A stretch of 25,010 nucleotides of DNA, from the IMG/VR virus record IMGVR_UViG_3300020371_000052, positions 1-25,010 of that record. One strand, 5' to 3'. A model generated the notes under the pieces. That model did no database searches and was not told the origin of the DNA. It saw only the letters and a program-made list of their open reading frames with translations. Shown piece by piece: positions 1 to 25,010 of the stretch. This stretch comes from a virus. Taxonomy: Duplodnaviria > Caudoviricetes. Each line of letters begins with the position of its first letter. Positions within the stretch are counted from its first letter, which is position 1. Made by a program: the position numbers and the translations under genes.

Positions 1-3000
1 CAAAAGGTCTTAGAGCAGGAATCTGATCAAGTGAAATCTTGCCAGACTCTGTAAGTTGAACTAGCTGGTTAGGAACAGCGTTTGTACCATATGGTCTATT
101 GATGTATGGACCAAGGTTGTTGGTAATGTAGTCTCTAACTGCTTTCTGAGTAGGTAGGACTGAGTTACTTGTTCCTGCACCACCAAGAGTGTTATCAGCA
201 GAGAATCCAGTAACAACAACGTCGCCACCTTTCAGTTTCAAGAATTCAACTTCAGAGATGGTAACCGTACCCGTAAAGGTAATAGCACCAGTTCTGTTTT
301 CGATCTGTGCGAACGTACCAACCTTGAAGTCACCAAGTTCGTCAGTACCTGAGCAGTAGACTCTACCGTAGTCTTCAGATACCTGCTCATTAGCAACAAC
401 CTTAGTACCACCGTTTTCAGGTAGTGCAAGATAGTTAGTACCAGAACCTGCAAATTCCCAGGTGTGTGAGGAGGAGTTGACGATAGATGGTCTGTGTAGT
501 CTAACTGTCTGACCAGTAAGAACAGATGTGGATACTGGTAGACCAGTCGAACTATCGGTCAAGTCCATAGGTTGTCCCTGACCATCATCGATGGTTACTT
601 CTGCAGTGAACGGTGGACCAGCACCAACAGCACCTACAGAATCAATGAAGTATTCAATATTGGCATTTGTATTTTCATAACCATCAATCTTGACAACATA
701 GTGCTCAAGTGGTTCTCTACCAAGATTATCAATTGTTAGGATTGCTCTGCCAGTTGGAGTTGCAGATACATTTGTGATTGTACCAACGTCAAATACATAT
801 GCTTCTCTTCTAAATCCAATACCACGGAGAGCGTAGATACCGAAGTTGGTAGCAGAGTTGGTGATGGAACAGTAACCACCAGACTCAGCAAGTACACCGT
901 CAGCACAGAAGATAACAAAGACCGAAACCAACTGGGTGTAACCATCTTCGATAACCTTGTATCCTGTACCACCAAAGGAGACGATGGTGAATGCAGATGC
1001 AACCATCGATTTACCCTGGTTGGGGAACGATGCAGAACCGTCTAGTTCTAGACCAGGGAAAGGACAGTTGGGTTGCTTGACCTTAGAACCATCAACTAGA
1101 GCACCGCCACCACCTAAGAAGGAGATAACAGAAGAGTTCTGAGTGTATGGTGATGCCTCGATGATTGGGTAATCATCATAGTCACCACGGATTGCCATTC
1201 TTACATTATTAAAATCATAGATATAAGAATCTGGATATGTAACAATAGAAGAAATATCAAATAATGTTCCTGTATTTTGTACTGTAGCACCAGGAGCAAC
1301 TGTTCCATCTAAGATGTCTTCTAGTAGACCCATAGATGTAGTGATAGAAGATGCTACATTAGCACAAGATGGATTTGCACTATCTTCTAGGATACTCCAA
1401 TCCTCAAACTTAGGAATTGGGGATGTTAGAGTAATTGGATTGTAAATAATTTTAGTTCCATTTGCTAGAGCACTTGCAAAAGTATGGGTATCAGTATTGC
1501 TTCCTGCTACACCTACATTTGCAGAAACTGTAGTGTTTCCGCCAGAGGTAGAAACATTTGTAATTAAGAAACTCTGACCAAAGTTTGCATCTGTTCTATA
1601 TGGACTTGCATCATCACCAGAAGCACAGTTGAATGTGATTGCACCTTCAGCAAATGCAATCCTATCAGAGTTAGCGACAGGTAGTGTTGATGGTGTTGGG
1701 AAAGTTACTGTAAAAGCACCACTGGTAGGACTATAAGTTGCAGTTGATGGTGTTGTTGCTAGAACATCACCATCTGACCAGTTACGCATTGCATTGACAG
1801 CGTACTCAGCAACTCTTTGGTATGCGTAGATAGTTTCATCTAGTTGGGATGCATCAATACCAGTTAGAGCAGCTCCAGTGAAATATTCTTCGGCATTTGT
1901 TACGATTCCACTATTACCACCTAATACCAAGTCTCTAATCAGACCACCAAGAATGAAATTGATATCACGACGACACTTTCTCTGGTGAATATCAGATAGT
2001 CCTAATAGAGGATATGCATTTTCTGTATCGATAAGTGCTTGGTCTGCAATCAGATCTCTGTTTTTAGCAATTAGATATGCAGCATCTAGGTATGTACCAG
2101 AAGCATTATTAGAAATGACATCTACCCAAAGATATGATAGAGTATCAATTGCCGATCTAACATCATCACAAGCAGGGTTTCCTGCTGTTGATGTAATAAC
2201 ACTGTTGTCAAAGTATCTTGGTAGAGAAGAATACTGAGGAATATATTGAGGATCGCCCGTAGTTCTATTACGAGTTCTCCAGTTACACATTGCATAGATT
2301 GCTAGTTCTCTAGCATACTCAATAGCACGAACATTCTGAATAATTTCATCTTCGATATAGGCAATCTTTCCGCCTACAATGTACTTCTGTGCTGCTTCTA
2401 GGACATTATGGTTAGAACCAAACTCAAGGTCTCTTACAAGAGCATTTAAGAAGTGTACAACGTCTTCACGACACTGGTTATCATCTGTTGGAATATTGAA
2501 ACTTGGATATACTTTCTGTCCATTGTCACACTCTAATAGAATGTCAGCAAGTTTTACAATATCATCTTCCGCAAGACCAGCAACTGGGTTGGTTGTAGTA
2601 ACAACTGCAACACCAGTAGTGGTATGATCATATGAAAATCCACTGATGTTGTATGTAGATCCACCAAATTCAACAGTACCACCACTTATATACGTATGTG
2701 CAAATCTGGAAGTTCCTAAGAAAATTTTAAATGTAGATCCAGAAATATCATATGCAGAAAAATAATCTTTTGAAAACTCCCTGTTAATTCTACCTACAAC
2801 TTCATCTGCAATAAAATCTCTGTTGTTGCGGATGAATACACATGCATCTTGATATCTTCTCTCAACTGGAGTTGCAATCTGGAATGTATTTGGTGAGTTG
2901 AGTAGAGATAAAGTAACACTTCTTGTGTAAGTTTTTACCTGCGCGAATTGTCCTGGGTCAAAATTAGCATCATTAAGTCCAGGAATTTTTTTAGGAATTA

Positions 3001-5185
3001 CAAATCTTCTAGCACGACCATCAGCGTCTTCTAGAACTTTGTAAATTCTTTGTTTTCCATTAAGCATGGAAATATCTGGACTATTGTTTGTGGGAAGTCC
3101 ACTAATTTCAATTTCTTGACCTTCTTTAAATTCGTGGGTATTTTGTCTACCAACTAGTTCGTTAGTGTAGAATACAATACCACCAAGGTCTTCTGAATTT
3201 CCAAACTGCTCATTCTGGAATCCATCTGTAAATGATCCTTGCTGAGAAAAGTCAAGTCTCTGAATAGGAAGAACTGCAGTTACATCGTCCTCAACAGAAA
3301 CAACTTCTCCTTCTGCTCTAATTGACTTGAGGCTAACGGTGTCAACAGTATATGAAGTAGGTGTAGCATCATAGATTAAAATGCCCTCTGCTTGAGTGGT
3401 GCTCCAAGTAGGAGAATTTAGAATGGGAACTACGACGACATCCCAGTAAGTTGGTGAATTTTCATCATCTGGTGTGATGTTTGCTACTTCGTAATAACCT
3501 TGTGAGAAACTAGAATCATCAGTATCATCTAGGTAGATGTAAGAACCACCAGCAATAGTACCAGTAGGATCAGTAGTAATTCTGAATGTATTTTCTCCAG
3601 ATGTTTCGGTAATAGTTAAGGAAAGCGCACTTCCCGTAGCAGCAGAAGTAATGTATCTGTATTGTTCACCCTCAACGAATGAACCACTGGTCAGTTCTAC
3701 ATCAAATGTACCATTGACATATGCACTTGCTCCTGTGGTAGTATCAAATTGTACACCAATTACGTTTGCTCTTGCACCAGTGTTAACACCAACTACTTCA
3801 ATTCCAGTTTGTAGTTGTGACAAACCACCATTTTGCTGGAATCCAACACGGAATCTATCAGGTCCAAAAATTTGATGACCGATTGGGAAATCAACACCGA
3901 AGTCACCATTTACTTCATAGTCTACTAAAATTCTTTGCTTGTCGTCAAAGACCATAGCAAAGTCCCATGTAGAGACTGGATCTCCGTTAGCGTCAACTCT
4001 ATCTCTATAGGTAACGCCAATAACATAGTTTTTATCACCAAACTTGACAATATGTTTGCCAGGATTAGCAGGTCTGATAATTACCAGACGGAGGTTGTCA
4101 CCAACAATAGAACAATCTGGTGGCAATGAAATTGGGTTGTCTTCTACGTAGTCACCACCAGAAACAATAATAGTTTCTTTAATTCCAGGAGTTGACCACG
4201 CTAGTTGCGCTGCCTTCTTAATTGTACGAACAGGATTAACTGCTGAACGACCATCGTTCAAGTCAGAACCAATCTGTTCAGAAACATAGATACGACCACC
4301 AACGTCATTTGTTGCTAGGTTGAGGACGTATTCTGTAGTAGCAATTTTATCAGATCTGTCGCCTAGTAGAGGTGTGATAGAACGTGGAAAATCTCCAGAT
4401 TCTGCAGTTTCGTTATATCTATATGAAGCAGGATTATCTACTCTAAAACCAATGTGCTTGAAATTAACTTCGCCATTGAGTTCAGTGCCGTCTTGGTGTG
4501 TTGGTGCAAGACTTCCAGTTTCCCCTGTATTCAGGGCTTGGTACATATTTTGACCAAAGTATCTGTAAGAATCCTTCTGAAGGATAACGTTAGCAGACCA
4601 GATTTCACCTGTGTTGTTTGCAAATGTCTTGAGATGAGGTGCTCTCATCGCAAGGTCAGGAGTAACAAAGTTATCAATATCCAGGTTTAGGATATTTGCG
4701 GTGTCTGAAATGATAGACGTTGACGTTCTGATTGCACCGTTAATATCAAGTTCATAGTCAACAGTATCACGGAAAGCGTCAGCAGTAGCACCAAAACCAT
4801 TTCCATCGACGGAATTAATAGTTACACTAGGAACAGATGTGTAACCACTACCAGGATTGTTAATAGCAATGTTTACAACACTACCATTGAAGATAAAAGC
4901 AGACGCTTGACATGGAATTCCCGCAGGATCATTTGGCGGTCCTACCTGAACACTAGGAGGTTGTGTATATCCAGCACCACCGTTAGTGACTTCAATGTTG
5001 TTAATTCTTTGACCAGTTCTGTTAATACCAACACGAGGCAGACCCGTATTAGCATCCAATTCAGCACGTAATACTTCTCTCTCTAGAGATCCAGTACCGT
5101 TTCTAATAGTAAGTTCGTTATCACCGATGAGTTTGGGTCTGGAACCTCTAACAAACTCTTTATCGGAATTGATATTAAAACTCAT
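1..5185 (-). CDS. Large tail/fibre-like virion structural protein (>=1728 aa, 3' end outside window) with a split pectin-lyase-like beta-helix, a CBM-like motif and two phycobiliprotein-like helical repeats
   Basis: Not in the ORF track because it has no stop inside the window. ATG at 5185-5183 reads MSFNINSDKEFVRGSRPKLIGDNELTIRNG..., and the same frame reads ...GKISLDQIPALRPF at the left edge. It contains GRIYVSEQIGSDLNDGRSAVNPVRTIKKAAQLA...GGDYVEDNPISLPPDCSIVGDNLRLVIIRP and SPYTQNSSVISF..GGGALVDG..SMVASAFT..GYTQLVSVFVIFC..ESGGYCSITNSATNFG, typical of cyanomyovirus beta-helix structural proteins. A late promoter motif lies about 36 nt upstream. Confidence 0.93.
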   Translation of the reverse strand, partial: MSFNINSDKEFVRGSRPKLIGDNELTIRNGTGSLEREVLRAELDANTGLPRVGINRTGQRINNIEVTNGGAGYTQPPSVQVGPPNDPAGIPCQASAFIFNGSVVNIAINNPGSGYTSVPSVTINSVDGNGFGATADAFRDTVDYELDINGAIRTSTSIISDTANILNLDIDNFVTPDLAMRAPHLKTFANNTGEIWSANVILQKDSYRYFGQNMYQALNTGETGSLAPTHQDGTELNGEVNFKHIGFRVDNPASYRYNETAESGDFPRSITPLLGDRSDKIATTEYVLNLATNDVGGRIYVSEQIGSDLNDGRSAVNPVRTIKKAAQLAWSTPGIKETIIVSGGDYVEDNPISLPPDCSIVGDNLRLVIIRPANPGKHIVKFGDKNYVIGVTYRDRVDANGDPVSTWDFAMVFDDKQRILVDYEVNGDFGVDFPIGHQIFGPDRFRVGFQQNGGLSQLQTGIEVVGVNTGARANVIGVQFDTTTGASAYVNGTFDVELTSGSFVEGEQYRYITSAATGSALSLTITETSGENTFRITTDPTGTIAGGSYIYLDDTDDSSFSQGYYEVANITPDDENSPTYWDVVVVPILNSPTWSTTQAEGILIYDATPTSYTVDTVSLKSIRAEGEVVSVEDDVTAVLPIQRLDFSQQGSFTDGFQNEQFGNSEDLGGIVFYTNELVGRQNTHEFKEGQEIEISGLPTNNSPDISMLNGKQRIYKVLEDADGRARRFVIPKKIPGLNDANFDPGQFAQVKTYTRSVTLSLLNSPNTFQIATPVERRYQDACVFIRNNRDFIADEVVGRINREFSKDYFSAYDISGSTFKIFLGTSRFAHTYISGGTVEFGGSTYNISGFSYDHTTTGVAVVTTTNPVAGLAEDDIVKLADILLECDNGQKVYPSFNIPTDDNQCREDVVHFLNALVRDLEFGSNHNVLEAAQKYIVGGKIAYIEDEIIQNVRAIEYARELAIYAMCNWRTRNRTTGDPQYIPQYSSLPRYFDNSVITSTAGNPACDDVRSAIDTLSYLWVDVISNNASGTYLDAAYLIAKNRDLIADQALIDTENAYPLLGLSDIHQRKCRRDINFILGGLIRDLVLGGNSGIVTNAEEYFTGAALTGIDASQLDETIYAYQRVAEYAVNAMRNWSDGDVLATTPSTATYSPTSGAFTVTFPTPSTLPVANSDRIAFAEGAITFNCASGDDASPYRTDANFGQSFLITNVSTSGGNTTVSANVGVAGSNTDTHTFASALANGTKIIYNPITLTSPIPKFEDWSILEDSANPSCANVASSITTSMGLLEDILDGTVAPGATVQNTGTLFDISSIVTYPDSYIYDFNNVRMAIRGDYDDYPIIEASPYTQNSSVISFLGGGGALVDGSKVKQPNCPFPGLELDGSASFPNQGKSMVASAFTIVSFGGTGYKVIEDGYTQLVSVFVIFCADGVLAESGGYCSITNSATNFGIYALRGIGFRREAYVFDVGTITNVSATPTGRAILTIDNLGREPLEHYVVKIDGYENTNANIEYFIDSVGAVGAGPPFTAEVTIDDGQGQPMDLTDSSTGLPVSTSVLTGQTVRLHRPSIVNSSSHTWEFAGSGTNYLALPENGGTKVVANEQVSEDYGRVYCSGTDELGDFKVGTFAQIENRTGAITFTGTVTISEVEFLKLKGGDVVVTGFSADNTLGGAGTSNSVLPTQKAVRDYITNNLGPYINRPYGTNAVPNQLVQLTESGKISLDQIPALRPF

Positions 5186-10575: not shown

Positions 10576-10780
10576 TTTTGATTAACTCTCGCAGTAAGGC
10601 TTTGATTTCAGATACTTCATCCTTCAAGTTATTTATGTCATCAACTACAGTCTCGATACGAGACATCTTACGCCTAGCCTCTACATGCTTGAGAAATTCA
10701 CTTCTATTTGTATTAACAATCGCACCAGTTCTAGGATCACGAAGTAGTGAATCGTGATCCTTTACTTTGATATAATCCAT
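10562..10780 (-). CDS. Small T4-like cyanophage hypothetical protein (72 aa, C-terminal coiled coil)
   Basis: ORF track. KVKDHDSLLRDPRTGAIVNTN followed by heptad-like INNLKDEVSEIKALLRELI; I recall this type of gene following vrlC in marine T4-likes. Its start overlaps the vrlC stop (TGATG at 10782-10778) and its end overlaps the next start by 14 nt. Confidence 0.9.
   Translation of the reverse strand: MDYIKVKDHDSLLRDPRTGAIVNTNRSEFLKHVEARRKMSRIETVVDDINNLKDEVSEIKALLRELIKNASN
10630..10636 (-). promoter_or_regulatory. Candidate internal late promoter ATAAATA inside the 72-aa gene, about 55 nt upstream of the 1613-aa gene
   Basis: Plus-strand tatttat at 10630-10636, read on the minus strand as GAC ATA AAT AAC (D-I-N-N). 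Confidence 0.6.
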
Positions 10781-13700
10781 CAGTAAGAAGCAACTGCTCT
10801 CATGTCTTGGATCTTGGGAACGTAAGCAGGATTGTCAGACTTCATAACAATCTTAATACCAAAGGAAGAGAATTCAGGTAGATCTGATACACTGTATTCT
10901 AGTTCTTGATAAGAGGTCTGCTTCTCTGTAATACTTGAAATAGTATTCTCTGCGGAAGCAACAACGTCAAAGTCAGGTAGACCTGTTCCATTGAAGAACT
11001 GGTACTCAATAACATCAAAGGATTCTTGACTAGAAGACTCTTTATATCTAAAGAGAACCTGAATATCAGAAACATCTTTGATGTTTGCAGTCAACTTGAC
11101 GTTAATTGAAGTTCCAGGATTGCCAATGGAGATTTCTTTTGTTACATACTTAGCAATGGAAGAACTATTGACGAATCTATTTTCTGGTGCATAGTCAATA
11201 CCATCGGTATATTCGATTTCTTTGACTTCCCAGTATGCAGACTCATCTGCTTCTTGACCTGTGTAAGAAAGAATATCACCAACACGGAAGATATCTTCTA
11301 CACTTTCTCCACTTCTTGCTACACTTGGTTCTACTACTGAAGCTTCTGCAAGTGTTTGATCGAATGTAGTTGAACCAAACGGTTTCTTATCATTCTTAAC
11401 TGTAATCTCTTGACTATTAATATCGAAGAAGGTTACTTTACCTTCGATCTTAGCAGTGAAGATTCCAGTGAATCCAACATTTCTTGCAGTAACAGTAGCA
11501 CCAACAGTAGGAATTACAGGACCAGCTGTACCACCAAATGTTACTTTAACTGGATCTGAAGTTACTGTTGGGTTTCCAGCAATGCCAGAGATAGACAACT
11601 GATCATTCTTGGAGAATGGATTGATAGTAGAAACTCTTACGTAAACAATTGTATCACCACCTACTTCAACAACCCTAGCAATAGTTCCTTTTGCTTGAGA
11701 ACCATTTAGTCCAGCAACAGTAGAACCAATTGCTTCAATACTGACTTCTTGATTGGAAAGAATAGTCTGTCCATTCAAGTTGCCTAAGACGAAAGAATAA
11801 ACTTCCTTGAGTCTAAGCAATGCATCTCTTCTTCCATATCTATCCTCTTTACCAGATGCGTTTTCAATTCTATTGCTAGAAGTGATTACACTTGCAGAAG
11901 AAAGATCAATGGCAGGTGATAGGTATGTAATATCAGAATTGAAATCAATTTTATATTCAATAGAACGATCAATATTATTCATAACCTGATTGATTCTTGA
12001 AGCAAGAACTTTCTGGTTTGTGAAGTATTGAATTTCATTCAAGAATGTCTTTTCATATACTGTTTGAGAATATGAAACATAGTTTTCTGTATCAGAATCA
12101 ACAGGAATAATATTGGTTGTCTTTACAGATGATGTGACTGTGGTATCACTGAAGGACAAGTAATTGACTTGTGGGAATAGTCTTTCAAACTTTCTGTTAT
12201 ATGCTGCTAGGACAACACCACCGCCACCTTTTACACTATTGGAAGCAGTTGTATCGTTAGTAATGTTATACGAATCAATACCAGCATTGGTGACTCTAAA
12301 GAGTTTTGTGTTAAGTTGTGTACTAGAAACACCACCTACACCATCAGCACCACTGTAGAATACATACGATTTTCCACCGTCTTCAAAACCATGGTTCTTA
12401 TGGTAAACCTTAACAACTTTGTTGTTGAGTTTAAACAGAGGAGAAGTTGCATTCTGATCTGAGACTCCACTAGTCTCATATGGATTCAGTTTGAGATATT
12501 CGTAACCAGGATTCTCGGTAGAGAGCTTCAATGTAGCACCTCTAGTTGTATCGAATTCTGCACGATTCAATTTGAATTTAATATCTTCAAATAGATCTTC
12601 TGTCCAGTTATCAGTATTCTGTGCCTTATAAACAGATCCAAGGAGAGGTTGTGTTGTTACAGGAGAACTAGTAACAATCTCTGTTTCTCCAAGTCTAGAA
12701 GACCAAAGCATATATTCAGTAGAATCTGTTTCAATCACTAATGCATACTGAGATCCATTCTGTAAGTAAACAGGATTTTTAAATTTAAACTTGGTAGGAA
12801 TAGTAGAGTTGGTAGTTCCATCTGTATCAACAGCAACACCCATTCTAACTGCAGGATTATCAATTGTAATCTTTGCAGTAACTACTCCACCGCCATTACC
12901 ACTTCCAACACCCTTGATAACGATTGCTGGAGGTGCAGTGTATCCAGATCCACCAAGGGATACTGAAGCATCGTAAATTCTTCCTTCTGAAATCTTAACA
13001 GCACCGCTTGCCTGACTTCCTCCTGCAAGTTGTGGACTTTCAAAAGTCAAGAATGCGGAGTCGTAACTTTGACCTGTTGCTTCAACAATTAGATCAGTAA
13101 CTCTTCCAGAATCTTTAGCAATCGTAAGACCTAGGTTGGTGTTATTCTTGTTATTGAATTCTGTGATTGAATCAATAATCAAGTTCTCATTTTGGATGAA
13201 TTCTCTGCCATTGTGGTTAGAGAGAACCAAGGTGTAAACTTGATCACTAGAAACAATTACCTTACCATCAGCAGAAGCAGTCACCTCAATATTGGTTGAA
13301 TCTAGAACTTTAAGTAATGGTCCACTACATGCAGACTGAGAACCAACAATATTTTCTCCAACTGTTAAGGTTGTTGTGCCATTAGAATATGCACGAATCA
13401 AGGTATTTGGAGACAGTGTTGCTTCTGCTCCAGGAATAATATGTTTTGCTGGTTTGTCAATTTCAGTATTTGTTAGATATACTCTGATAGGAATATTGGT
13501 GCTCTTCTTATTAAAGTAGAGTTCTGCACTGGTTACAAACAAACCACCTTCAAAAGATTCAATACTGAAAGTTTGTGCAAGTGGATTGGGTTTGATTTCA
13601 ACATCAGTTACACTGTCAATTTTCTGTACACCTTCATTTGCTTTAAAGTAAGCAGGTCCAGTAGAATTGATGGTTGGTGGATTTTGTGGTAACTTGCCAA

Positions 13701-16700
13701 GTGCATAATACTTAAGATCTGCATATGAATCTACAGTATCTTTGGCGTCATTAGTACGACTTGAGGTGAACCTAATAGTCTTGATACCCGTTACGATTCT
13801 CAATTCTGGTTGTGTAGCATCATAAGATACGGTATCGATATTACCAGTCCATGTTGCATTCTCTACAGGAGGAACACCACCAGGAATAATGATGATACCA
13901 CTAGCATTACCATTTTCGTCTGTTGTAATTGGTGCGTTAAATCCAATTGAGGAATTGCCAGCAATACCAGTAAATCTGCTATCGGGACATGTCCATCTAG
14001 AGATGTCATTTCCTTCCAAGAAAGGATATAATGTAGTCAATGGTTTTAATCTTTGTACAGTAAACTTGACTGCAGTGGATCTAGCATAGAACTTCAGAGA
14101 AGTAGCAACTGTTCCTTTCTGGTCAGAATCTGTAGCAATACCTTTACCAATTTCATTGTTATCTGGACTTACATTAGAGCTACTTGCAACTGATGCTCTG
14201 GTTACTTTTTCGATAGAACTATCTGTGTTAGTCTTACCAAAAGATGCAATGCTTCCAAAGGTTCCTTTTGATCCAATCCAGTTAATTACAAATGAATTGA
14301 AGATACTAGAGAAACTCTCGGTAGTATCATCTTTGGAGATGAAGATAGAGTATAGACCAGTGTTGTTATCAACAATTACTGGTTCTACTTCTTGATCATA
14401 CCAAGAATCAATTTGTGGATCTAAGTGTCCTTCACCAACATATTGTAGTGCAACAAATGGATTTGGATTAATAGTCTTTGTAGCAAAACTATTTCCAAGA
14501 ACCTCAAGTTCTGTGTATGGTAGAGTTACTAGATCTCCTGTTCTGACATAACCATCTACAAATCTTTGGTCTGTAGTAGTATTAATTTCTTCTAGTCTGA
14601 AAGAATCTTCTTTATTGGGAGATCTCAATACAGACTGTTGTGTATCAATAGCACACTTGTAGTCCTCGGAAGAAATTTCACCAATACCATGAGTTTCAAA
14701 ATTGTCAACAACAAATCCTGTTTTGAATCTATCAAATCCAATAGTGTCACGGATCTGCATGTTCAGAGCTTGTTGCTCAAGAACACTAAGAGTGGTATAA
14801 TACTCAAGACGCTCAATGCGCTTTTCAAGTTTACCAATATCCTTCATCGTATATCTACGATTGTCAACAGGAAGAATTCTTACATCCTTGCTGTTTTTCG
14901 TAAATGCTGGTACATAGAAATAGTATAGTGGGATAGCGTCGTCAATTAACTCGGGTTTGGTTGGATTCTGTGAGGAGTTACCTTCCTTGAGTACAAACTG
15001 TCCTCTCTTCGTCAAGAACACACCATCAATTCTATTCAAGAATTCTGTTTGGGTAAACTTGAATGTAAATTCAAGGTTCTTATCTGGAGCAGGAACAACA
15101 GATGCAACACCACCCTCACCAATAAAGTTTCTGAGGATTGCTTCTCTTGAAGATTGATCTTGGAATCCTGTTACAAATGAAGAAGAATCTACCTTTGGTC
15201 TGAAGTCAAATACATTCTTGAGTGAAAGAATGCCATGGACTGCAGAGTTAAAGGTTGGGATTTCTTCTAGAGTTACACCTGCTTCGTGGAGGTAACTATC
15301 TACGGTACAGAAGTCTCCTTGTGAGTGCTCAAAATAATCAAACGCAACTACAAGTTGACCTACTGGAGCTTCAAATCCTGGTTTTAGAACAATGCGTGAT
15401 ACATCATAGAATGTATCTCTTTGTCCATCATCAAAAGTGAATCTCTCGGTAACATCAACACCAGAGACTAGGTTACCAGCACTATCGATTGTTGGTGGCG
15501 AAGAAGAAGTACCTTCGTAGATGTACTTAAGTTTGAATACATCAGAATACGTAGATACATTAGTTGCTTCTGTATCGAAGTTTTCTCCTCTTAGTGGTAC
15601 AATTCTGTCACCAGCAGACTTGATAAGAATTCTTCTGTTTCTTACTACGGACTTAATCCTAGGTCTTGCTTTGCTTAGTTCTAAGGTAGCACTTAATTTG
15701 AGTGTTGGGAATGGTTCTTGTGAAGTTCCGAAAAACTCTTGTGGTAGATTTACCTTAATACTGCCAGCATTAAGTCCACTAGCAGCATCTGTTGTGCTTT
15801 CATTAATAATGTTTGCTTCTGTCAAATAGATGACATCACCAGTTGCAACTTTTGTTGATGATCCTGGGTTCAGGACAGTCATTACAAAGTTTTCTGGAGT
15901 AAATCTGGCAAATCTTTGAGTACCAAATGGCAACTGTGCAGTAAAAGTAATGTTACCACCACTAGATGCTGCCTCTGTAATGAAATCTTTTCTGTAGAAA
16001 TAAGAGATCTTAGAGTCTTCGTTGCTTTGTGAAATGCTAGCAACTTGATTACCACCAGTTGGGTATAAGAGAGATCCCTTAGAAGAGTTTTCAATATTGC
16101 ATTCTACTTTAACAACACTTCCGTTGACAACATCTGCTGCTAGTGCAGTGTCTAGATAGATTCTAGACTTAAGGGTTCCTTCTGGTTTAGTAGCATATGC
16201 TACCATTACTTTTTCTGCAGCACCAGCAGAATCGGTAAATTGAATGTAATCACCTTGCTTCAGGAATACTGTAGTATCTCCATTAAATCCATTACACTCC
16301 AAGAATCTAGATCCTGCACCACCAGTGAAAGTAAAGTCAGTTACTGGGATAAGTTTTGCATATGGAGACTTGGATGCTTCTAGGTCAGCAGTGAACAAGT
16401 TGTTGCCACCAGATCCGTAAGCACATCCAAATGATTTGACATCGTTTGGTGTATAAGTCTGAACTGTATTTCTAAACAGGACAGCATCAATCTTTGCGGA
16501 TGTAGTAATAGTTCCCGAAGAAGGAGCATCGACAGTTACTACAGGTGGTTGTGAATATGTCTGACCAAATACGCCTCTGTTTAAAATGTCAATACCAAAT
16601 ACATTTCCGTCAATATTTCCAAAGACATTAACTTTTGATGTATCAAATGATACTCCATTGATGGAGATGCCTGCAGTTCCAGCAGTTCCATTGGTACTTA

Positions 16701-19026
16701 CTTCATAACCACCACTGCCTCTATTCTTAACAATAAAGTGTGAGATGGTGTTGTCAGTTGCAATCTTTGCGGAATTATCATCTTCGTCTCTAATTACCTC
16801 TCCCGAAACAAACTTACCAGAAAGAGCAGTAATCATCAACTCATTTCCAGTGGAGAAGGTAGAACCAGAGGATCCTTCAATGACACCATATGCGCCACTA
16901 GTAATACCAAAAATATACTTACCTTTTTCAAAGGTTCCAACAGCAATGTCGGATTCTAGTATAATTTTTGTATAGAATGATGGTGCAAAGTAACCTAGAC
17001 CAAAGATACCGTTGTATGCAGATTGTCCGCCAGACAACTTACCTTTTGATACAACTACATCAGCATCAGGGTTAAAACCAAATCCAGTTTCTTTTAGGGT
17101 ATAGTTTCCTGGTTTTGCAACACCAATTAGGGGAGTTGTAACTTCGGAAAAGTCTTGAATATTTCCAAGAATTGCTGAAGTAGGATTTAATACATTTCCT
17201 TGATCGTCAACACCAGCAATTGCTTCTAGATACAGTTGTCTTCTAGATTCTGTATCTTCGATATCATAAGTCTTAACTAAACCTTTTAGAACTGCTTTAT
17301 CTCCAAGTAAAGTCAGTTCTGCAAATCTCTTTTGTGCTACAACATCGTCTCTTTGCTTGATAGAAAAACCTACCAAGTCAACAGATTTATAAGTGTCTGG
17401 ATAACCACCACTATATGTAAAGGCAAGATATAACTTACCATTTGAGTCGCAGCATTCTTCAAAGGTTAGCGAACCATCAAGAGTTTTATCAACTAAAGTT
17501 GGTGCTGCACCAGTACCATTAGTAATGTCAACAGTTACTGTGACAGTTGCTAAACTGTCACCATATAGTTCTCCTCTTCTATCAACTGAAGCACGAGCAC
17601 CAACACCAGATCTGTTTGGATTTACTGCTGATTTTTGACCAGATGCAAACTCAATGTTTTGACCTACAGTTCCATCATTATAAACATTGTATAATTCTAC
17701 ATCTGGATATGCTGTTAGTTCAGATCCCTCTGCATTGAATGGAATAGATCCATAGACATTAGTAATAGGATATGTTGGAAGACCAGTTGTTTTGAGAGTT
17801 ACGTTTTCAGCGTCTACAGTCTCTCTTGCTTTGTTTACTTCTAGATATTTGGTTTCTTTATTAACAATTTCATATCCTCTAATGTATGCTTTACCAGCAC
17901 CAACATTAGCAACCATCTTTTGGGATGCATCTTGTAATGAAAGACCATTTACTAGTCCATCATCTCCTTGTGCATATAAACCATTATTGCCATCATTCTG
18001 GTAGTATTCTCTGATACCTACATCAAATCTATCTACAACATAGTCACCAGATTCATCATATGTTCTTCTTGCTAAAGTTTCTTCTAGTACGGTATAATCA
18101 GTAGGCTTAATTTGCTTCTGAATTACACCACTCTTAACAGTGAGAATCTTGATAAAGTTTTTATCTGTGGTAGCAGACAGATCATACTTCTCTAGGTTTA
18201 GTTTGATGCTAAGTCTGTGAGCACCAGGAGCAGAGAAGTTTGAAGAACCAATTGCATTATCGTAGAGGCTTGGGTCTTCTTCTGGTGTGACAATAGATTC
18301 TTCTACTCTAAATCCAACAATAGCAGAAGGTGCATTATAATATGGATCAATGATAAAAAGTTCTTCGTCATTACGAACAAAATATCCGTTGACAAAGTAA
18401 ATACCTTCTTCTACTTTAACTGCAGAAGCATAACCCATTGCACGACTTTCAAGAACTGTTACATCTTGAGTATCTGGGTTGACAACACTAACAGTTGTTG
18501 GTAGTACACTACCATCAGTTCCAACAACTAGTAAAGGAGTGTTTACTCCATCCACAACCTCTAGTGTTTCTCCTTGCCTAAAGGTATTCTCATTGCCAGC
18601 ATTACCGCTAGTTAAGTAAGTGACAAAGAGAGTATCTGCTGTAGTTTCAGTCGCAGTTTGTACGGAGACAAGATTAGCAACAACACCAGAAGTTAAACCT
18701 CTTAGTTGTTGTCCGACTAACTGTGAAATATCATATTTTCTATAGACGATAGCGCCACCTTCATTGACTGCTACCTCTGACACAGAAGATAGTTTTACAT
18801 AATCTAACTTATTATTAAGTCCAACCTCTCCAGGAACAATAAGCTCTCCTTGCTTAAAAGCATTTTTTCCAATACTTTCAATTTGATTCTGTAGAACAGA
18901 TTGTAACTGCGTTAACTCTCTACCTTGAATTGAGTATCCAGGACGGAAGAGAATTTTATAAAAATTCTTACTATCGTCAAAATCCTCAAAATAAGGAGAA
19001 ACATTTAGGTTAGTCTTCTGTGGCAT
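10780..19026 (-). CDS. vrlC: VrlC-like / DUF4815 virion structural protein (2748 aa)
   Basis: The N-terminus MPQKTNLNVSPYFEDFDDSKNFYKILFRPGYSIQGRELTQLQSVLQNQIE, internal LARRTYDESGDY, DNRRYTMKDIGKLEKRIERLEYYTTLSVLE, DRFKTGFVVDNF and PLAQTF motifs, and the C-terminal FSSFGIKIVMKSDNPAYVPKIQDMRAVA are hallmarks of this family. It lies in the usual position after gp8. Confidence 0.9.
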   Translation of the reverse strand: MPQKTNLNVSPYFEDFDDSKNFYKILFRPGYSIQGRELTQLQSVLQNQIESIGKNAFKQGELIVPGEVGLNNKLDYVKLSSVSEVAVNEGGAIVYRKYDISQLVGQQLRGLTSGVVANLVSVQTATETTADTLFVTYLTSGNAGNENTFRQGETLEVVDGVNTPLLVVGTDGSVLPTTVSVVNPDTQDVTVLESRAMGYASAVKVEEGIYFVNGYFVRNDEELFIIDPYYNAPSAIVGFRVEESIVTPEEDPSLYDNAIGSSNFSAPGAHRLSIKLNLEKYDLSATTDKNFIKILTVKSGVIQKQIKPTDYTVLEETLARRTYDESGDYVVDRFDVGIREYYQNDGNNGLYAQGDDGLVNGLSLQDASQKMVANVGAGKAYIRGYEIVNKETKYLEVNKARETVDAENVTLKTTGLPTYPITNVYGSIPFNAEGSELTAYPDVELYNVYNDGTVGQNIEFASGQKSAVNPNRSGVGARASVDRRGELYGDSLATVTVTVDITNGTGAAPTLVDKTLDGSLTFEECCDSNGKLYLAFTYSGGYPDTYKSVDLVGFSIKQRDDVVAQKRFAELTLLGDKAVLKGLVKTYDIEDTESRRQLYLEAIAGVDDQGNVLNPTSAILGNIQDFSEVTTPLIGVAKPGNYTLKETGFGFNPDADVVVSKGKLSGGQSAYNGIFGLGYFAPSFYTKIILESDIAVGTFEKGKYIFGITSGAYGVIEGSSGSTFSTGNELMITALSGKFVSGEVIRDEDDNSAKIATDNTISHFIVKNRGSGGYEVSTNGTAGTAGISINGVSFDTSKVNVFGNIDGNVFGIDILNRGVFGQTYSQPPVVTVDAPSSGTITTSAKIDAVLFRNTVQTYTPNDVKSFGCAYGSGGNNLFTADLEASKSPYAKLIPVTDFTFTGGAGSRFLECNGFNGDTTVFLKQGDYIQFTDSAGAAEKVMVAYATKPEGTLKSRIYLDTALAADVVNGSVVKVECNIENSSKGSLLYPTGGNQVASISQSNEDSKISYFYRKDFITEAASSGGNITFTAQLPFGTQRFARFTPENFVMTVLNPGSSTKVATGDVIYLTEANIINESTTDAASGLNAGSIKVNLPQEFFGTSQEPFPTLKLSATLELSKARPRIKSVVRNRRILIKSAGDRIVPLRGENFDTEATNVSTYSDVFKLKYIYEGTSSSPPTIDSAGNLVSGVDVTERFTFDDGQRDTFYDVSRIVLKPGFEAPVGQLVVAFDYFEHSQGDFCTVDSYLHEAGVTLEEIPTFNSAVHGILSLKNVFDFRPKVDSSSFVTGFQDQSSREAILRNFIGEGGVASVVPAPDKNLEFTFKFTQTEFLNRIDGVFLTKRGQFVLKEGNSSQNPTKPELIDDAIPLYYFYVPAFTKNSKDVRILPVDNRRYTMKDIGKLEKRIERLEYYTTLSVLEQQALNMQIRDTIGFDRFKTGFVVDNFETHGIGEISSEDYKCAIDTQQSVLRSPNKEDSFRLEEINTTTDQRFVDGYVRTGDLVTLPYTELEVLGNSFATKTINPNPFVALQYVGEGHLDPQIDSWYDQEVEPVIVDNNTGLYSIFISKDDTTESFSSIFNSFVINWIGSKGTFGSIASFGKTNTDSSIEKVTRASVASSSNVSPDNNEIGKGIATDSDQKGTVATSLKFYARSTAVKFTVQRLKPLTTLYPFLEGNDISRWTCPDSRFTGIAGNSSIGFNAPITTDENGNASGIIIIPGGVPPVENATWTGNIDTVSYDATQPELRIVTGIKTIRFTSSRTNDAKDTVDSYADLKYYALGKLPQNPPTINSTGPAYFKANEGVQKIDSVTDVEIKPNPLAQTFSIESFEGGLFVTSAELYFNKKSTNIPIRVYLTNTEIDKPAKHIIPGAEATLSPNTLIRAYSNGTTTLTVGENIVGSQSACSGPLLKVLDSTNIEVTASADGKVIVSSDQVYTLVLSNHNGREFIQNENLIIDSITEFNNKNNTNLGLTIAKDSGRVTDLIVEATGQSYDSAFLTFESPQLAGGSQASGAVKISEGRIYDASVSLGGSGYTAPPAIVIKGVGSGNGGGVVTAKITIDNPAVRMGVAVDTDGTTNSTIPTKFKFKNPVYLQNGSQYALVIETDSTEYMLWSSRLGETEIVTSSPVTTQPLLGSVYKAQNTDNWTEDLFEDIKFKLNRAEFDTTRGATLKLSTENPGYEYLKLNPYETSGVSDQNATSPLFKLNNKVVKVYHKNHGFEDGGKSYVFYSGADGVGGVSSTQLNTKLFRVTNAGIDSYNITNDTTASNSVKGGGGVVLAAYNRKFERLFPQVNYLSFSDTTVTSSVKTTNIIPVDSDTENYVSYSQTVYEKTFLNEIQYFTNQKVLASRINQVMNNIDRSIEYKIDFNSDITYLSPAIDLSSASVITSSNRIENASGKEDRYGRRDALLRLKEVYSFVLGNLNGQTILSNQEVSIEAIGSTVAGLNGSQAKGTIARVVEVGGDTIVYVRVSTINPFSKNDQLSISGIAGNPTVTSDPVKVTFGGTAGPVIPTVGATVTARNVGFTGIFTAKIEGKVTFFDINSQEITVKNDKKPFGSTTFDQTLAEASVVEPSVARSGESVEDIFRVGDILSYTGQEADESAYWEVKEIEYTDGIDYAPENRFVNSSSIAKYVTKEISIGNPGTSINVKLTANIKDVSDIQVLFRYKESSSQESFDVIEYQFFNGTGLPDFDVVASAENTISSITEKQTSYQELEYSVSDLPEFSSFGIKIVMKSDNPAYVPKIQDMRAVASY

Positions 19027-19121: not shown

Positions 19122-20933
19122 TCAGAATTCAATAACGAGTTTGATATCTTCAATCTGGTCAGGAGCACGAGTGATTAGTCTTCTGTTCTCAATGTAGATG
19201 ATGTCTCCAGAATTGTTAGCAATCTCAGGAGTTCCTAGACCGTTTGCAAGGGTTACACCTTCTAGTGTTCCGTTGTATACAGTATCTACATTACCATCTG
19301 CTGCGGAGTTTCCACCAGTAACGTCTACAGCACCATTTGCTTCAAATGCATATACTGCACCGTTGTGTAGGTGCTCAGCAGGAGACTGGTAATACTTGAG
19401 AATACCATTGGTGGTTGAACCAGCATCTAGTGTCCAAGAAACAACAGTTCCTTTTGCGATGTTTCCATCTGCACGGACTTGACTGATTGGTTCGTCAGAG
19501 ATATAATCTGCAGATGATCCAGTGATCTTAACAGCATACATGCCATTAAGTGTTGAAGAGGTAGCATATGAAGAAGTACCCCAATCATAAGGATCGGTTA
19601 GTAGACCAATACGGCGGAAGTCGTTATCTACAGGGAAGTCACCTGAACCTTCTGCATAGGTTAGGCGAATGTTTGTCATGACACGCTTTGCATTCAGCTC
19701 GATGTCTGCAGCAGCGCCGTGACCGCCCTTAGGAGGAAGTACAACTTCGATTGCACCAGTTGCACCAGCAGGTGTTGCAACACCAGTGGTGGTGCCAGCG
19801 TCACTGTAGAGGTAACCGTTGCTTAGAAGGACGTTTGCATAGGTGTAACCAGATCCACGAGAAGTGACAGTTGCGCTAGAAATAGCACCACCTGCAGTAG
19901 TTACGATTTGAACAATACCGCCAGTACCATCACCTAGGATGTCTGCATATAGAGTCTGTGAAGGAGGTAGGTTTCCACCTGCATCTTCTACTAGTGCAAC
20001 ATCAACAGAACCAGCAACAGCAAGTGCTTCAGTTGCTACTCTGGTTGATTCTGTTGGAAGTACAACAGGCATGAAGTCGGAAGACAAGAACTTAAGTACA
20101 TCATCGGTTGGGAGGGTGTACATGTACTTCCAGACATATCCTGCACCAGAAGTCTCGGTGTAGATACCAGTTGCACCATTGTATCCTGCACCTGCTACAG
20201 AAGGTTCTTCAGTAGCATTTTGACCAGTTGGGTTGGCAGGGTTTTCGCCGTTGTAGAGACACTTGAATACTTCATAGTTAGTATTCATTACATAGAACTT
20301 AGCGTCTGCAATGCTATCATATCCTAGTGCAGTTGACTTACCAATCTGACCACCACCTGCAGGTGATGCAGAATAGTCAGGCTTCCACATGTCGAACTTA
20401 GGATTGGCAACTAGATCCCAGTTATAACGACGAACAACAGCACGGGCATTTGCGTCGGTTACTCTCTTTGCTGCAATGATGTCGTCGTAAATGTCAGTCT
20501 TCTCTACTTGGTTGTCAAGAGGAAGTGGGGGTGCATCTTCAGTTGCATAACGGTATACGCCAGAAGTTGCAGTAACGCCAGTATCAGAAGCACCGTCCCA
20601 TTCTTTGATGGTTGATCCTAAACCAGGAGCAGATGCAGTACCAGCAGAACCGAAGATTGCGCTTAGAAGAATTGAGTTGCTGTATACTGCCTCAACAGTA
20701 CCGCGCCATGTTGCTGTTCCGTAGTTAGTTCCAACATAGAGTTCGTTACCTACTGTGAAAGATCCTCCGTCTACAGAGTAGGTTTCGAGGAATGCTCTCC
20801 AGGGTTGTGGACGACCTACAAAGAAGTAGAGTCTGGTGCGGTCGGCGCTAGCATCGTTTGCGCCTTCACTAAGCGATTCAAGGAATTGCTTCGCATTAAA
20901 AATTCGAAATTTATCAGAGATGATAGCAGCCAT
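19122..20933 (-). CDS. gp8: Baseplate wedge subunit gp8 (603 aa)
   Basis: MAAIISDKFRIFNAKQFLES, LYFFVGRPQPW, FYVMNTNYEVFKCLYNG, GYVWKYMYT, FLSSDFMPV, NDFRRIGLL and SGDIIYIENRRLITRAPDQIEDIKLVIEF are typical T4-like gp8 motifs. Confidence 0.95.
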   Translation of the reverse strand: MAAIISDKFRIFNAKQFLESLSEGANDASADRTRLYFFVGRPQPWRAFLETYSVDGGSFTVGNELYVGTNYGTATWRGTVEAVYSNSILLSAIFGSAGTASAPGLGSTIKEWDGASDTGVTATSGVYRYATEDAPPLPLDNQVEKTDIYDDIIAAKRVTDANARAVVRRYNWDLVANPKFDMWKPDYSASPAGGGQIGKSTALGYDSIADAKFYVMNTNYEVFKCLYNGENPANPTGQNATEEPSVAGAGYNGATGIYTETSGAGYVWKYMYTLPTDDVLKFLSSDFMPVVLPTESTRVATEALAVAGSVDVALVEDAGGNLPPSQTLYADILGDGTGGIVQIVTTAGGAISSATVTSRGSGYTYANVLLSNGYLYSDAGTTTGVATPAGATGAIEVVLPPKGGHGAAADIELNAKRVMTNIRLTYAEGSGDFPVDNDFRRIGLLTDPYDWGTSSYATSSTLNGMYAVKITGSSADYISDEPISQVRADGNIAKGTVVSWTLDAGSTTNGILKYYQSPAEHLHNGAVYAFEANGAVDVTGGNSAADGNVDTVYNGTLEGVTLANGLGTPEIANNSGDIIYIENRRLITRAPDQIEDIKLVIEF

Positions 20934-20969: not shown

Positions 20970-20994
20970 TATTTATATTTATACCGATATTTAG
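20970..20994 (-). promoter_or_regulatory. Cluster of late promoters upstream of gp8: two overlapping TATAAATA plus a CTAAATA spanning the gp7 stop
   Basis: Plus-strand tatttata at 20970-20977 and 20976-20983 (minus strand TATAAATATAAATA), and tatttag at 20988-20994. Confidence 0.85.
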
Positions 20995-23900
20995 TCAATT
21001 GAATATGGTATGATGTCAGAACCACTTTGGATGGTAGTGGATCCGCTAATAACGGTACATCCATTAAATGTGGTTGGGGTCTTAGATGTGTAACGAATCA
21101 CACCTCTATTGGATCCAGAACCATGGAATATGTATCCAGATGCTGGGAAGTAATCTGTATTTTGTACAGTAATATCTCCAAGAGAAGCAATTGTTCCGCT
21201 ACTAAACGTAGTTGTTGCTGGATTATTGAAAGATGGAATACCTAGATTGAATTTCTCTCCCGCTAATGTATAGTTGGAGAATCCACGTTCTTCTAAATCT
21301 CTAATACCGAAAGATACAAAGAGTTGTGAGAATTCAGCAATTGAAACTCCACCACCAGGCATAAATCCGCTATCTTTGGAAACATAGTCCCAAGAAGAAA
21401 TATTTGCACCCACATTACCAACATTATACTTACCGATATAAGAAGTTTGTTCTTCTTCGAGGATGTTACGTGCAACAATAACCGTTCCATCTCTTTGAGT
21501 TACTGACTTATCGAGAACAGTAACAAATCCATTAATTCTAGTCAAAATTGGATTTGAGAATTTGATTTTCTCAATAAAGTAATCAACAAATCCGCCAGGT
21601 GGTGTGAAGAACAGAAGTTCTGATGCTTTTTCTAGAGCAGAAACAACTTCAGTCTCGACCTGAATAACAGAAGTGTCAACTGTTGCAACTGGTCTAAAGT
21701 TAGTAAAGTCGGAAACAATATTGTTTCCGCCAGCAGGAACATCTAGAGTGACCTGCTGTGAGATAGAAGAAATAGACTCTACGTTTACAGAAACCTGCAA
21801 TTCGGTAACACGATTTACAGTAGTTTCCATTTCAAATGTTGCTGGAGCAACAAATTGTCTGGTTAACTTGTTCTCTGCTTTTCCAACTGGAATAGAATTT
21901 GTAACAATTGTTTCACTAGTGAAGGAAGTTACACCGCCGAATGCAAGACTTACGAAATCTTCAATCTGTCTGATGAATGTTCCAGGATTCCAGTTCTTCT
22001 CTGTAGTGTTATCAAATCCTCTAGTTACGTTGAGGAATCTATCGCTTCTCTTTCTTGGATAGTATACAACTTCATCGCCAACCATAAGTTTGCCATGACT
22101 GGTAAACTTAGCAGTATCTGGAATGTAAACAATGTGATCTCCAATGTTTAGAGGTGCCTGTAGATATGCTCCAGGTGCTCTGTAGACAGCATTGTCTAGG
22201 AAGGTATTGTCAAGTTCTCTCTGAATTGTCTGAACAATAAATCTATCAGTAGACATTTGAGAGATGCTGATAACATCTTCTGCACGTACATCTACAAAAC
22301 TTTGGATGTATCTTTCTGCTTCTTCTGCTTGTCCAGCATAATAAGGTCCAAGATAATAAAAATGTTGTCTGTACAAAGGTGGTACATCTTCTGGCATGAC
22401 AGAAGCACCATCTTCAAGAGACTCTGGGTAAATCTCTTGTTCAATTTGGTCTTGGACATTTCTTACAGAATCTAGAACAACAGCAGTGAGAAGTGCCTGT
22501 TCTGGGGGTGGTAGTTGAATAACATCAACCGTAGAAATAACATTAATTCCTTGATTAATTACAGACTGTACACCCAACTTGACAAGTGATACCTTGATAT
22601 CATCTTGTTTCTTGACATCATACTTTCTGGTAACAACTACCTTAGGTGCTTCTGTGTAACCAGATCCACCAGATACGAGTTGAATACCTTGGATTTCTCC
22701 ACCAGCAACAATTACTTGTGCTCTTGCACCACCACCATTTCCATCTTTTGGAATAAACTTAAGTTGTGGTGGAGTTCTATATCCAAATGCAGTGGGTCTA
22801 TAAAACTTGTAAGTTGTAGTTCCATCTGCATTTGCAATCTCTTCTACAATTCTCTCATTCCAGTTGAGAGCAGTAACAACACCATTTGTAATGACAGCAG
22901 AAACACTAAGACCTTCGCCTAATGTCTTACCATTATAAGATGAGACACCAAATGATCCATAGATGTCATTACCAGCATCACCGTCTAAACGGTTATCTCT
23001 GGTGTAAACTTCATTTGGAACTGAACTGATAGTTCTATATCTAGACTCACCTTCAATCTTAACTTGATCTCCTGGTGCAAGTCTGAAGAATCCTTTTCTT
23101 TGTAGAAGATCATTAGTTCTCTTTACATCTTCAGCAAAGTACGACTTATCTGTTCTAGACAAATAATCATAATTCTTGGTTAATGTAAGACTATCTGTTG
23201 CAGCAAAAGTAAATGTACTAACTGCAGTAGCACCCATAGTTTGAACATATGTTGTTCTAGAAGCATCATAATCAAGATTGTTAGAATACATCTTGATCAT
23301 AACTTGGTTTGCACCAACTAGTTTCCAATCATAGATGGAACCAATACCATAAACTCCATTGGAGTCTTCTTGATAAATGTAGAATTTATCTTTAGTCGTC
23401 AATGCCCAATCACTGGTAACTGCAAAACCATTAAATCTAGCACTTACTCCAGATCCATTTACTTCAAGTGTGTAATCATACAGATATCCAGAAGTATCAA
23501 AATCATGGAATGTTACTGTAGATTCTAAGTCTCTACCATAACAAAGTCTGATGTCAACAACATCTTCTTCGCGTATTGAATACTTCTTGAATGTAATTGA
23601 TGCACCTGCAATTTCATATGCAGTTATTGGTTTTTGAATTACACCATTGACAATAACAATCACATAGTTTGAGTCGCTAATATTTACAATCTTATCTTCG
23701 TCTACACTTACAATCAAGAAAGGACCAACTCTTTCGCCATTAACTAGTGACTTATCAATAGTATAACGTTTGTAGTTACCAATATTGGTGGCAAATAATC
23801 TCTCGACCTGTGATGGTTCTTGAATTGTCTTTGCAGACAAATCTTGATCCCAAATGGGAGGAGCAGTAAACTTGATTAAGTTTGGTGTGACTGTTTTATC

Positions 23901-25010
23901 AATCCAATAAGAATCAAATGCTGGTTCATCTGGGTTGTACTTAGGACGTTGAATTACACCATTAAGTGCAACCATCAAATGCTCGTCTGTTTCAGTTAGA
24001 GAAACTGGTGATCCATCATCATCCCAATACAGTTCAAATTCTGAGGTTTCATTATCAATAAAGTCAGGTAATGACTTGGTAGTTGATGTATCTAAGATCA
24101 TTGCATCATTAATAATATCAGCAAAAGACGATAGGGAAGAAACTACATCTTCACACTCTCCACTAATTAACTGATTATCTGCTATAATGTCATAGTTAGC
24201 ATAAGGAACGAGTCTTGTGTAGTATCCAGGTCTCGTTGGATTCTGACTAGTTGGTTGAATGACATTAGGACCTGTATTAAAAATAGTTTCAACGATATCA
24301 TAATAAGTATTCAGCGCAGATTCTACGCCAGCACAAGTAGGAGATAAGAGATCAACAATTACTTCTGGGTCATTTACAGGAGCAATTGATGTATACGTAC
24401 TACCACTCGTTAGCTCTTGACGCATCGCTTGAACACAAAGTTCAGTAAGAACTTTTTTGTATATTGATTTTGTCTCAACAAACTCACCAACAATATAATT
24501 GAGTTTGCTACCAACAAAGTATAGTTCAGCAAATTCTACTAGTTTTTGGTTTCCGCCAAATCTCAAACTATAAAGGGCAGCATCTAGGAGATAACCAATA
24601 TCTCTACCACACTTTGTAGTTAAGTTGTTTTCGCCTAAAGTTCTGTGTGTTAATTGCAAACCAACTGGTATTCTATCAATAGGACCTTGATTTTCTAACT
24701 CTACAGAAAGTACAGTTCCATTTTCATCATATTCTACTTCTACTGTAGGTAAGTCGGTTGTTATTGTAGGATTGCTTATGACTACCGATGCTGGTACATT
24801 TGGATCATATCCATAACCACCATCAGTAACACTAACTGTTGTTTCTACGGCAAGTTTTACAGTTGCATCCAATTCAATAATCTGATCTTGATTCAAGAGA
24901 GACTTAATATAAACTTCAGTTTGGTTTGGATCTGCAGCCTGCATTCCTTGTCCACCATCAACAATTTCTAGTCGATCGACTCTCTTTCCAAGAGCTACTC
25001 TTGCTTCTCC
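20991..25010 (-). CDS. gp7: C-terminal part of a giant baseplate wedge initiator (gp7-like); 5' end outside window
   Basis: The frame of the 1317-aa track ORF stays open to the window edge (GEARVALGKRVDRLEIVDGGQG before M at 24944), so that ATG is internal. It lies directly upstream of gp8. It has LMVALNGVIQRP/VIVNGVIQKP repeats, GGSGYTEAPKV repeats and an ..IPDTAKF..GKLMVGDEVVYY..FLNVTRG.. unit as in cyanophage gp7. The gp7 name rests mainly on synteny. Confidence 0.8.
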   Translation of the reverse strand, partial: GEARVALGKRVDRLEIVDGGQGMQAADPNQTEVYIKSLLNQDQIIELDATVKLAVETTVSVTDGGYGYDPNVPASVVISNPTITTDLPTVEVEYDENGTVLSVELENQGPIDRIPVGLQLTHRTLGENNLTTKCGRDIGYLLDAALYSLRFGGNQKLVEFAELYFVGSKLNYIVGEFVETKSIYKKVLTELCVQAMRQELTSGSTYTSIAPVNDPEVIVDLLSPTCAGVESALNTYYDIVETIFNTGPNVIQPTSQNPTRPGYYTRLVPYANYDIIADNQLISGECEDVVSSLSSFADIINDAMILDTSTTKSLPDFIDNETSEFELYWDDDGSPVSLTETDEHLMVALNGVIQRPKYNPDEPAFDSYWIDKTVTPNLIKFTAPPIWDQDLSAKTIQEPSQVERLFATNIGNYKRYTIDKSLVNGERVGPFLIVSVDEDKIVNISDSNYVIVIVNGVIQKPITAYEIAGASITFKKYSIREEDVVDIRLCYGRDLESTVTFHDFDTSGYLYDYTLEVNGSGVSARFNGFAVTSDWALTTKDKFYIYQEDSNGVYGIGSIYDWKLVGANQVMIKMYSNNLDYDASRTTYVQTMGATAVSTFTFAATDSLTLTKNYDYLSRTDKSYFAEDVKRTNDLLQRKGFFRLAPGDQVKIEGESRYRTISSVPNEVYTRDNRLDGDAGNDIYGSFGVSSYNGKTLGEGLSVSAVITNGVVTALNWNERIVEEIANADGTTTYKFYRPTAFGYRTPPQLKFIPKDGNGGGARAQVIVAGGEIQGIQLVSGGSGYTEAPKVVVTRKYDVKKQDDIKVSLVKLGVQSVINQGINVISTVDVIQLPPPEQALLTAVVLDSVRNVQDQIEQEIYPESLEDGASVMPEDVPPLYRQHFYYLGPYYAGQAEEAERYIQSFVDVRAEDVISISQMSTDRFIVQTIQRELDNTFLDNAVYRAPGAYLQAPLNIGDHIVYIPDTAKFTSHGKLMVGDEVVYYPRKRSDRFLNVTRGFDNTTEKNWNPGTFIRQIEDFVSLAFGGVTSFTSETIVTNSIPVGKAENKLTRQFVAPATFEMETTVNRVTELQVSVNVESISSISQQVTLDVPAGGNNIVSDFTNFRPVATVDTSVIQVETEVVSALEKASELLFFTPPGGFVDYFIEKIKFSNPILTRINGFVTVLDKSVTQRDGTVIVARNILEEEQTSYIGKYNVGNVGANISSWDYVSKDSGFMPGGGVSIAEFSQLFVSFGIRDLEERGFSNYTLAGEKFNLGIPSFNNPATTTFSSGTIASLGDITVQNTDYFPASGYIFHGSGSNRGVIRYTSKTPTTFNGCTVISGSTTIQSGSDIIPYSID

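Follow-up and report, generated by a model that had tools for sequence, protein, structure and literature searches.

A phycobiliprotein-derived globin domain is built into baseplate and tail-fiber proteins of the cyanophage represented by IMG/VR virus record IMGVR_UViG_3300020371_000052. The stretch analysed (the window) comprises positions 1 to 25,010 of that record. It is 25 kb of a T4-like cyanomyophage structural cluster with the large genes all on the minus strand. The domain at 24279-24620 lies in an open reading frame (ORF) at the gp7 position and recurs in a giant tail-fiber protein. Giant baseplate and fiber proteins of related phages, numbering in the hundreds, also contain such repeats. 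It has lost the X and Y helices, is repeated in several giant virion genes and keeps a near-invariant CxRD motif. As the pigment-attachment cysteine is retained in these repeated domains, the virus particle, judged from sequence, likely carries covalently bound bilin pigment.

Relationship to phycobiliproteins

Phycobiliproteins were the top-ranked matches in both the profile searches and a fold search, the two cysteines aligned with CpcB 82 and 153, and the globin-like helical core of PF00502 was present. Profile searches and structure comparison had been set beforehand by the initial annotation as the test that could refute its phycobiliprotein assignment. Both gave the link, establishing common ancestry. 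Re-reading of the sequence bore out the annotated peptide, its frame and its Cys codons (24611-24609 and 24335-24333). An alpha-phycocyanin motif and a beta-like last helix had also been proposed; the domain indeed resembles the alpha subunit near the first Cys and the beta subunit along its entire length, the second Cys included.

The CxRD bilin-attachment motif (alpha-84/beta-82) was found in the window at Cys 24611 and 1975, with a CxED variant at 2473, and in 587 of 642 full-length repeats. A second bilin Cys at beta-153/155, before the last helix, was present in all three window copies and in the S-PM2 (3/3) and P-HM2 (2/2) copies read to the end. Of 90 repeats, mostly from jumbo phages, only 6 had this late Cys. 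The N-terminal X and Y helices of alpha-beta pairing were missing; on the targets, matches began at residues 34-40 by sequence and 28-47 by fold. Single-sequence comparison with phycobiliproteins gave E values of only 0.017-0.17. The PF00502 gathering cut-off (22.2 bits) was not reached: the window proteins gave no match and three of 22 members matched weakly (best E 0.023).

Within its known fold the domain represents a new branch. Compared with CpeB and CpcB (phycoerythrin and phycocyanin beta; PF00502) it lacks the X and Y helices, shares approximately 18% identity, falls below the Pfam cut-off and is embedded and repeated in virion proteins of 2000-7000 amino acids, often split or nested. 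CpcA/RpcA (phycocyanin alpha) gave the best sequence match, free of gaps from CxRD to the GG turn. However, this match was limited to the first 60 positions, the phage domain has Asp for Arg alpha-93 and Asp-Leu for the 98-99 pair, and the late Cys of the window copies is absent from phycocyanin alpha chains. ApcE, the core-membrane linker, is an antenna component with a single phycobilin domain, whereas the phage domains are many and in the virus particle. The bilin-binding globins known as BBAGs or photoglobins carry CxRD and, in non-photosynthetic bacteria, are associated with genes for heme oxygenase and pre-PcyA (PMC10151467). CxRD is described there as the bilin attachment motif; BBAGs bearing it load bilin without lyases, and those assayed were photoinactive (PMC10151467). 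These are stand-alone bacterial proteins (PMC10151467), whereas the phage domains are embedded, a comparison made by description only. The phage content of the available text of that paper is confined to PcyA/PcyX (PMC10151467).

Domain copies and their anatomy

A family profile of 107 rows scored 83 bits at 24279-24620, 67 bits at 2114-2512 and 92 bits at 1751-2098, with a weak 12 bits at 2762-2857. Among 400 shuffles of the two window proteins, no score exceeded 11.9 bits. One profile finds both the gp7-position and the tail-fiber copies, in agreement with the earlier claim that they are the same domain. Insertions interrupt both tail-fiber copies, ahead of the CxRD helix in one and ahead of the last helix in the other.

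The complete domain is approximately 155 amino acids in full-length relatives and is contiguous in L007, L001 and L002. In L004, whose domain has 96% identity to that of the window, an insertion of approximately 440 amino acids separates the CxRD helix from the first two helices. By L004, the first two helices of the window copy lie approximately 310 amino acids past the window edge. The initial annotation had placed an N-terminal helix upstream of a Gly-rich stretch at 24650-25010; the upstream helix was confirmed in these relatives, but the stretch is not Gly-rich (11 Gly in 120 amino acids). The L004 insertion (amino acids 2324-2765), whose end is seen in the window, is absent from relatives approximately 80% identical over the domain; by eye, Gly-x-Gly-Tyr beta motifs recur in it and one block may be carbohydrate-binding-like.

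An extra Cys-bearing helix follows the domain, and full-length relatives have an earlier N-half copy at amino acids 2050-2160. The extra helix therefore appears to be the end of a nested outer copy, the N-terminal half of which would lie upstream of the window. In a gp7-position copy elsewhere (L047:9610-10083), the late Cys is retained but the Cys and Arg of CxRD are gone.

Family size, conservation and distribution

The profile search returned 1379 clusters at 50% identity. Family statistics were taken from the best 150 of these clusters, with repeats selected by profile. Up to 35 matched stretches were found in one protein, and up to 44 per genome. Among approximately 1537 aligned repeats the Cys, Arg and Asp of CxRD were conserved at 96, 94 and 99%, and an Asp and a Tyr beyond it at 98 and 96%; mean column identity was 22%. 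Cys made up 0.68% of residues in the repeat-bearing proteins and 1431 of 3040 Cys fell in CxRD. Only one Cys was present in 438 of 642 full-length repeats.

A tblastn search of 50,697 GenBank phage records gave 348 matches, all with names of Synechococcus, Cyanophage, Prochlorococcus or, in one case, Marine. Scanning IMG/VR for the motif identified 133 loci, every one with repeats. The 27 longer IMG/VR records looked at were mostly pieces of genomes estimated at approximately 360 kb. Repeats occurred in several virion genes per genome, as expected of the mobile module that had been proposed. From annotation and gene position, each virion would carry many copies. In S-PM2 (NC_006820.1, L076:10885-22224) 16 tRNA genes are annotated on the same strand within an open fiber gene of 3779 amino acids; this annotation is probably misplaced.

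Bilin enzymes and repeats in the same genomes

Nineteen complete cyanomyophage records were hand-picked, six of them for having repeats, and cpeT was scored as PF06206 at E<=1e-3. It was found in 11 of 13 repeat-bearing genomes, the exceptions being S-SKS1 (missing) and P-SSM7 (sub-threshold), and in none of the six repeat-free genomes (S-SM2, S-SSM7, S-CRM01, P-TIM68, Bellamy and P-SSM2). HTVC008M and P-SSP7 had neither cpeT nor repeats. In six genomes a strong CpeT match lay 1.7-4.1 kb upstream of the repeats in a fiber frame of 3400-4500 amino acids; in five a divergent match lay at least 30 kb from them. Phage CpeT reportedly did not label host apoproteins (Gasper et al. 2017), which was not counted as evidence.

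In the complete jumbo phage G022 the heme oxygenase and PcyA-like genes are adjacent and repeats occur in five ORFs. The repeat genes lie outside the enzyme cluster (enzymes at 5814-7015, nearest repeat gene at 51710), so the clustering of BBAG genes is not reproduced. Repeats were found in eight of nine records chosen via relatives of the G022 reductase, including all four near-complete genomes (8-44 matches). Among records selected by capsid protein, G039 had 19 repeat matches and the reductase, whereas four partial ones had repeats but gave no match to the reductase. Eight jumbo records (G039 outside the eight) were searched for psbA/D; none contained it, with a positive control. The repeat-bearing jumbo phages form one related group.

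By eye, the two G022 enzyme genes (L295:5805-7090) follow a run of clpS-like, small heat-shock and dnaK-like genes. A relative of the reductase is encoded by 336 IMG/VR stretches. Two small G022 ORFs have one repeat each, of 374 amino acids (L312:3538-4659, minus strand) and 263 amino acids (L311:3425-4213, plus strand). The former has, by eye, a nitroreductase-fold look and is split by the domain; such ORFs possibly encode a light- or bilin-regulated enzyme. A frame of 376 amino acids with one repeat is present in G037 (8305-8748).

Proposed function and alternatives

Bilin is probably attached at the CxRD Cys during virion assembly, with the phage T-type lyase CpeT serving the second, beta-153-type Cys; beta-153 is served by CpcT-type lyases (PMC10452541). 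Cyanophages would take the bilin from the host, and jumbo phages would make it with their own heme oxygenase and bilin reductase. The pigment may then make fiber or baseplate deployment light-dependent, so that adsorption would occur when the host is lit. The whole chain, light-gated adsorption included, is plausible with the balance slightly against it. That most marine cyanomyophages and an abundant 330-400 kb jumbo clade build pigmented virions, with CpeT and heme oxygenase/reductase as virion-assembly genes and the pigment as an adsorption light sensor, is a tentative and somewhat doubtful extension.

Several points limit this proposal or weigh against it. The Fisher p value for cpeT and repeats (0.001) overstates their association, as genomes were hand-picked and kin share both traits. 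Adsorption of some cyanomyophages is light-dependent without host photosynthesis (PMC6628666), but the match to adsorption phenotypes rests on four phages (repeat counts 10-11, 5, 0 and 0) and proves little. In P-SSM2 a light effect is seen although the domain is absent, and both bilin enzymes are present without any repeat. An S-type lyase is reported in S-B68 (PMC10665884), yet no repeat was found in that phage.

The domains might instead carry bilin as a passive photoprotective or antioxidant coat, slowing damage to the tail apparatus by sunlight and oxidation. This is unlikely, though it deserves weight: the copy numbers per protein and per genome and the repeats in jumbo phages without psbA/D would fit it, as would BBAG holoproteins that are photoinert and weakly fluorescent (PMC10151467). 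However, copies in baseplate and fiber genes, often nested or split by insertions, suit mechanical coupling, and single repeats within the two small non-fiber ORFs of G022 do not suit a coat. That the captured fold is a structural or receptor-binding module, its Cys motif serving folding or its bilin being a structural cofactor only, is rather improbable given the conservation of Cys, Arg and Asp (94-99%) against the low mean column identity, the concentration of an otherwise rare Cys in CxRD and the association of lyase and bilin reductase genes with the repeats.

Bilins are abundant in Synechococcus hosts and the domain is homologous to host antenna proteins, and both would suit decoys acting in the infected cell on host phycobiliproteins, bilins or lyases. 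The missing pairing helices, the structural nature of the repeat-bearing genes and the jumbo carriers without a cyanophage marker make this very improbable. That the likeness arose by convergence or chance, in a helical bundle of a common type, is barely credible: this reading draws on the single-sequence E values and the unreached Pfam cut-off, and is largely refuted by the first rank of phycobiliproteins in profile and fold searches with both Cys in register.

Full-text literature searches, which took in the available text of PMC13198022 and bioRxiv 2024.12.13.628456 (subscription papers and supplements were outside the scope), turned up no account of phycobiliprotein domains among the structural proteins of phages. 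Nothing found resembles the predicted system, in which phage enzymes serve a virion that bears bilin. Phage bilin genes (hemO/ho1, pcyA, pcyX, pebS and cpeT) occur in the same genomes as the repeats and are usually read as aiding host light harvesting. The purpose of hemO/pcyA in phages of non-cyanobacterial hosts was called "still enigmatic", with no phage-encoded acceptor protein named in the text available (PMC11480375); for the bilin genes of Prochlorococcus phages, the purpose was described as unclear (PMC2984593). A bilin-bearing virion, if true, would explain the pigment-making and pigment-attaching enzymes of these phages. It offers one testable answer to the role of phage CpeT and phage-made bilins, above all where hosts have no phycobilisome (PMC11480375; PMC2984593), and would cover the light-dependent adsorption (PMC6628666). 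Cultured phages are available with repeats (S-PM2, P-HM2, Syn9) and without (P-SSM2, S-SM2). The domain is also a possible source of small monomeric bilin-binding tags.

Genomic setting

Features of the window are listed in Table 1. Full-length counterparts of ORF 20991-25010 are a frame of 3975 amino acids in L004 and proteins of approximately 3530 amino acids in S-H9-1 and ACG-2014h, where the gene lies between gp6 and gp8, as does T4 gp7. The best PHROG match was phrog_4406, 'virion structural protein'. No Pfam gp7 match was found and there was only a short match to phrog_708, a baseplate wedge subunit; the name gp7 is given by position, from gene order only. The P-HM2 record labels the gene at this position gp7, and ACG-2014h gives that label to a different gene. 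This is the DUF4815/VrlC-like protein of 2748 amino acids (10780-19026 in the window, minus strand), called VrlC in P-HM2; gp7 naming is thus inconsistent among records.

Table 1. Coordinates of domain copies and structural genes in the window
Feature	Position	Strand	Evidence
Phycobiliprotein-like domain, C-terminal two thirds (CxRD helix to last helix)	24279..24620	-	Profile match, 83 bits
Cys residues of the 24279..24620 copy	24611 (alpha-84/beta-82 equivalent); 24335 (beta-153 equivalent)	-	Sequence, profile, structure comparison
Extra Cys-bearing last helix, Cys 24155	24102..24248	-	Weak profile match, E 0.01
End of insertion between first helices and CxRD helix	24621..25010	-	Absent from L007, L001, L002
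Tail-fiber repeat 1: first helices 2762-2857, insertion, CxED variant (Cys 2473), last helix (Cys 2170)	2114..2857	-	Profile
Tail-fiber repeat 2: contiguous to 1751 (CxRD Cys 1975), insertion, last helix (Cys 1366)	1301..2098	-	Profile
5'-truncated gp7-position virion structural protein	20991..25010	-	phrog_4406, E 2e-221; synteny gp25-gp6-gene-gp8
gp8 baseplate wedge subunit	19122..20933	-	PF09215, E 5e-13; phrog_438
3'-truncated giant tail-fiber protein, host of repeats 1 and 2	2..5185	-	phrog_5342, E 0

A virion protein of 1613 amino acids (phrog_6005) is encoded at 5734-10575 on the minus strand. Near its C-terminal third it contains two internal repeats, and cupredoxin-like 'YxCxxH' motifs are visible by eye.
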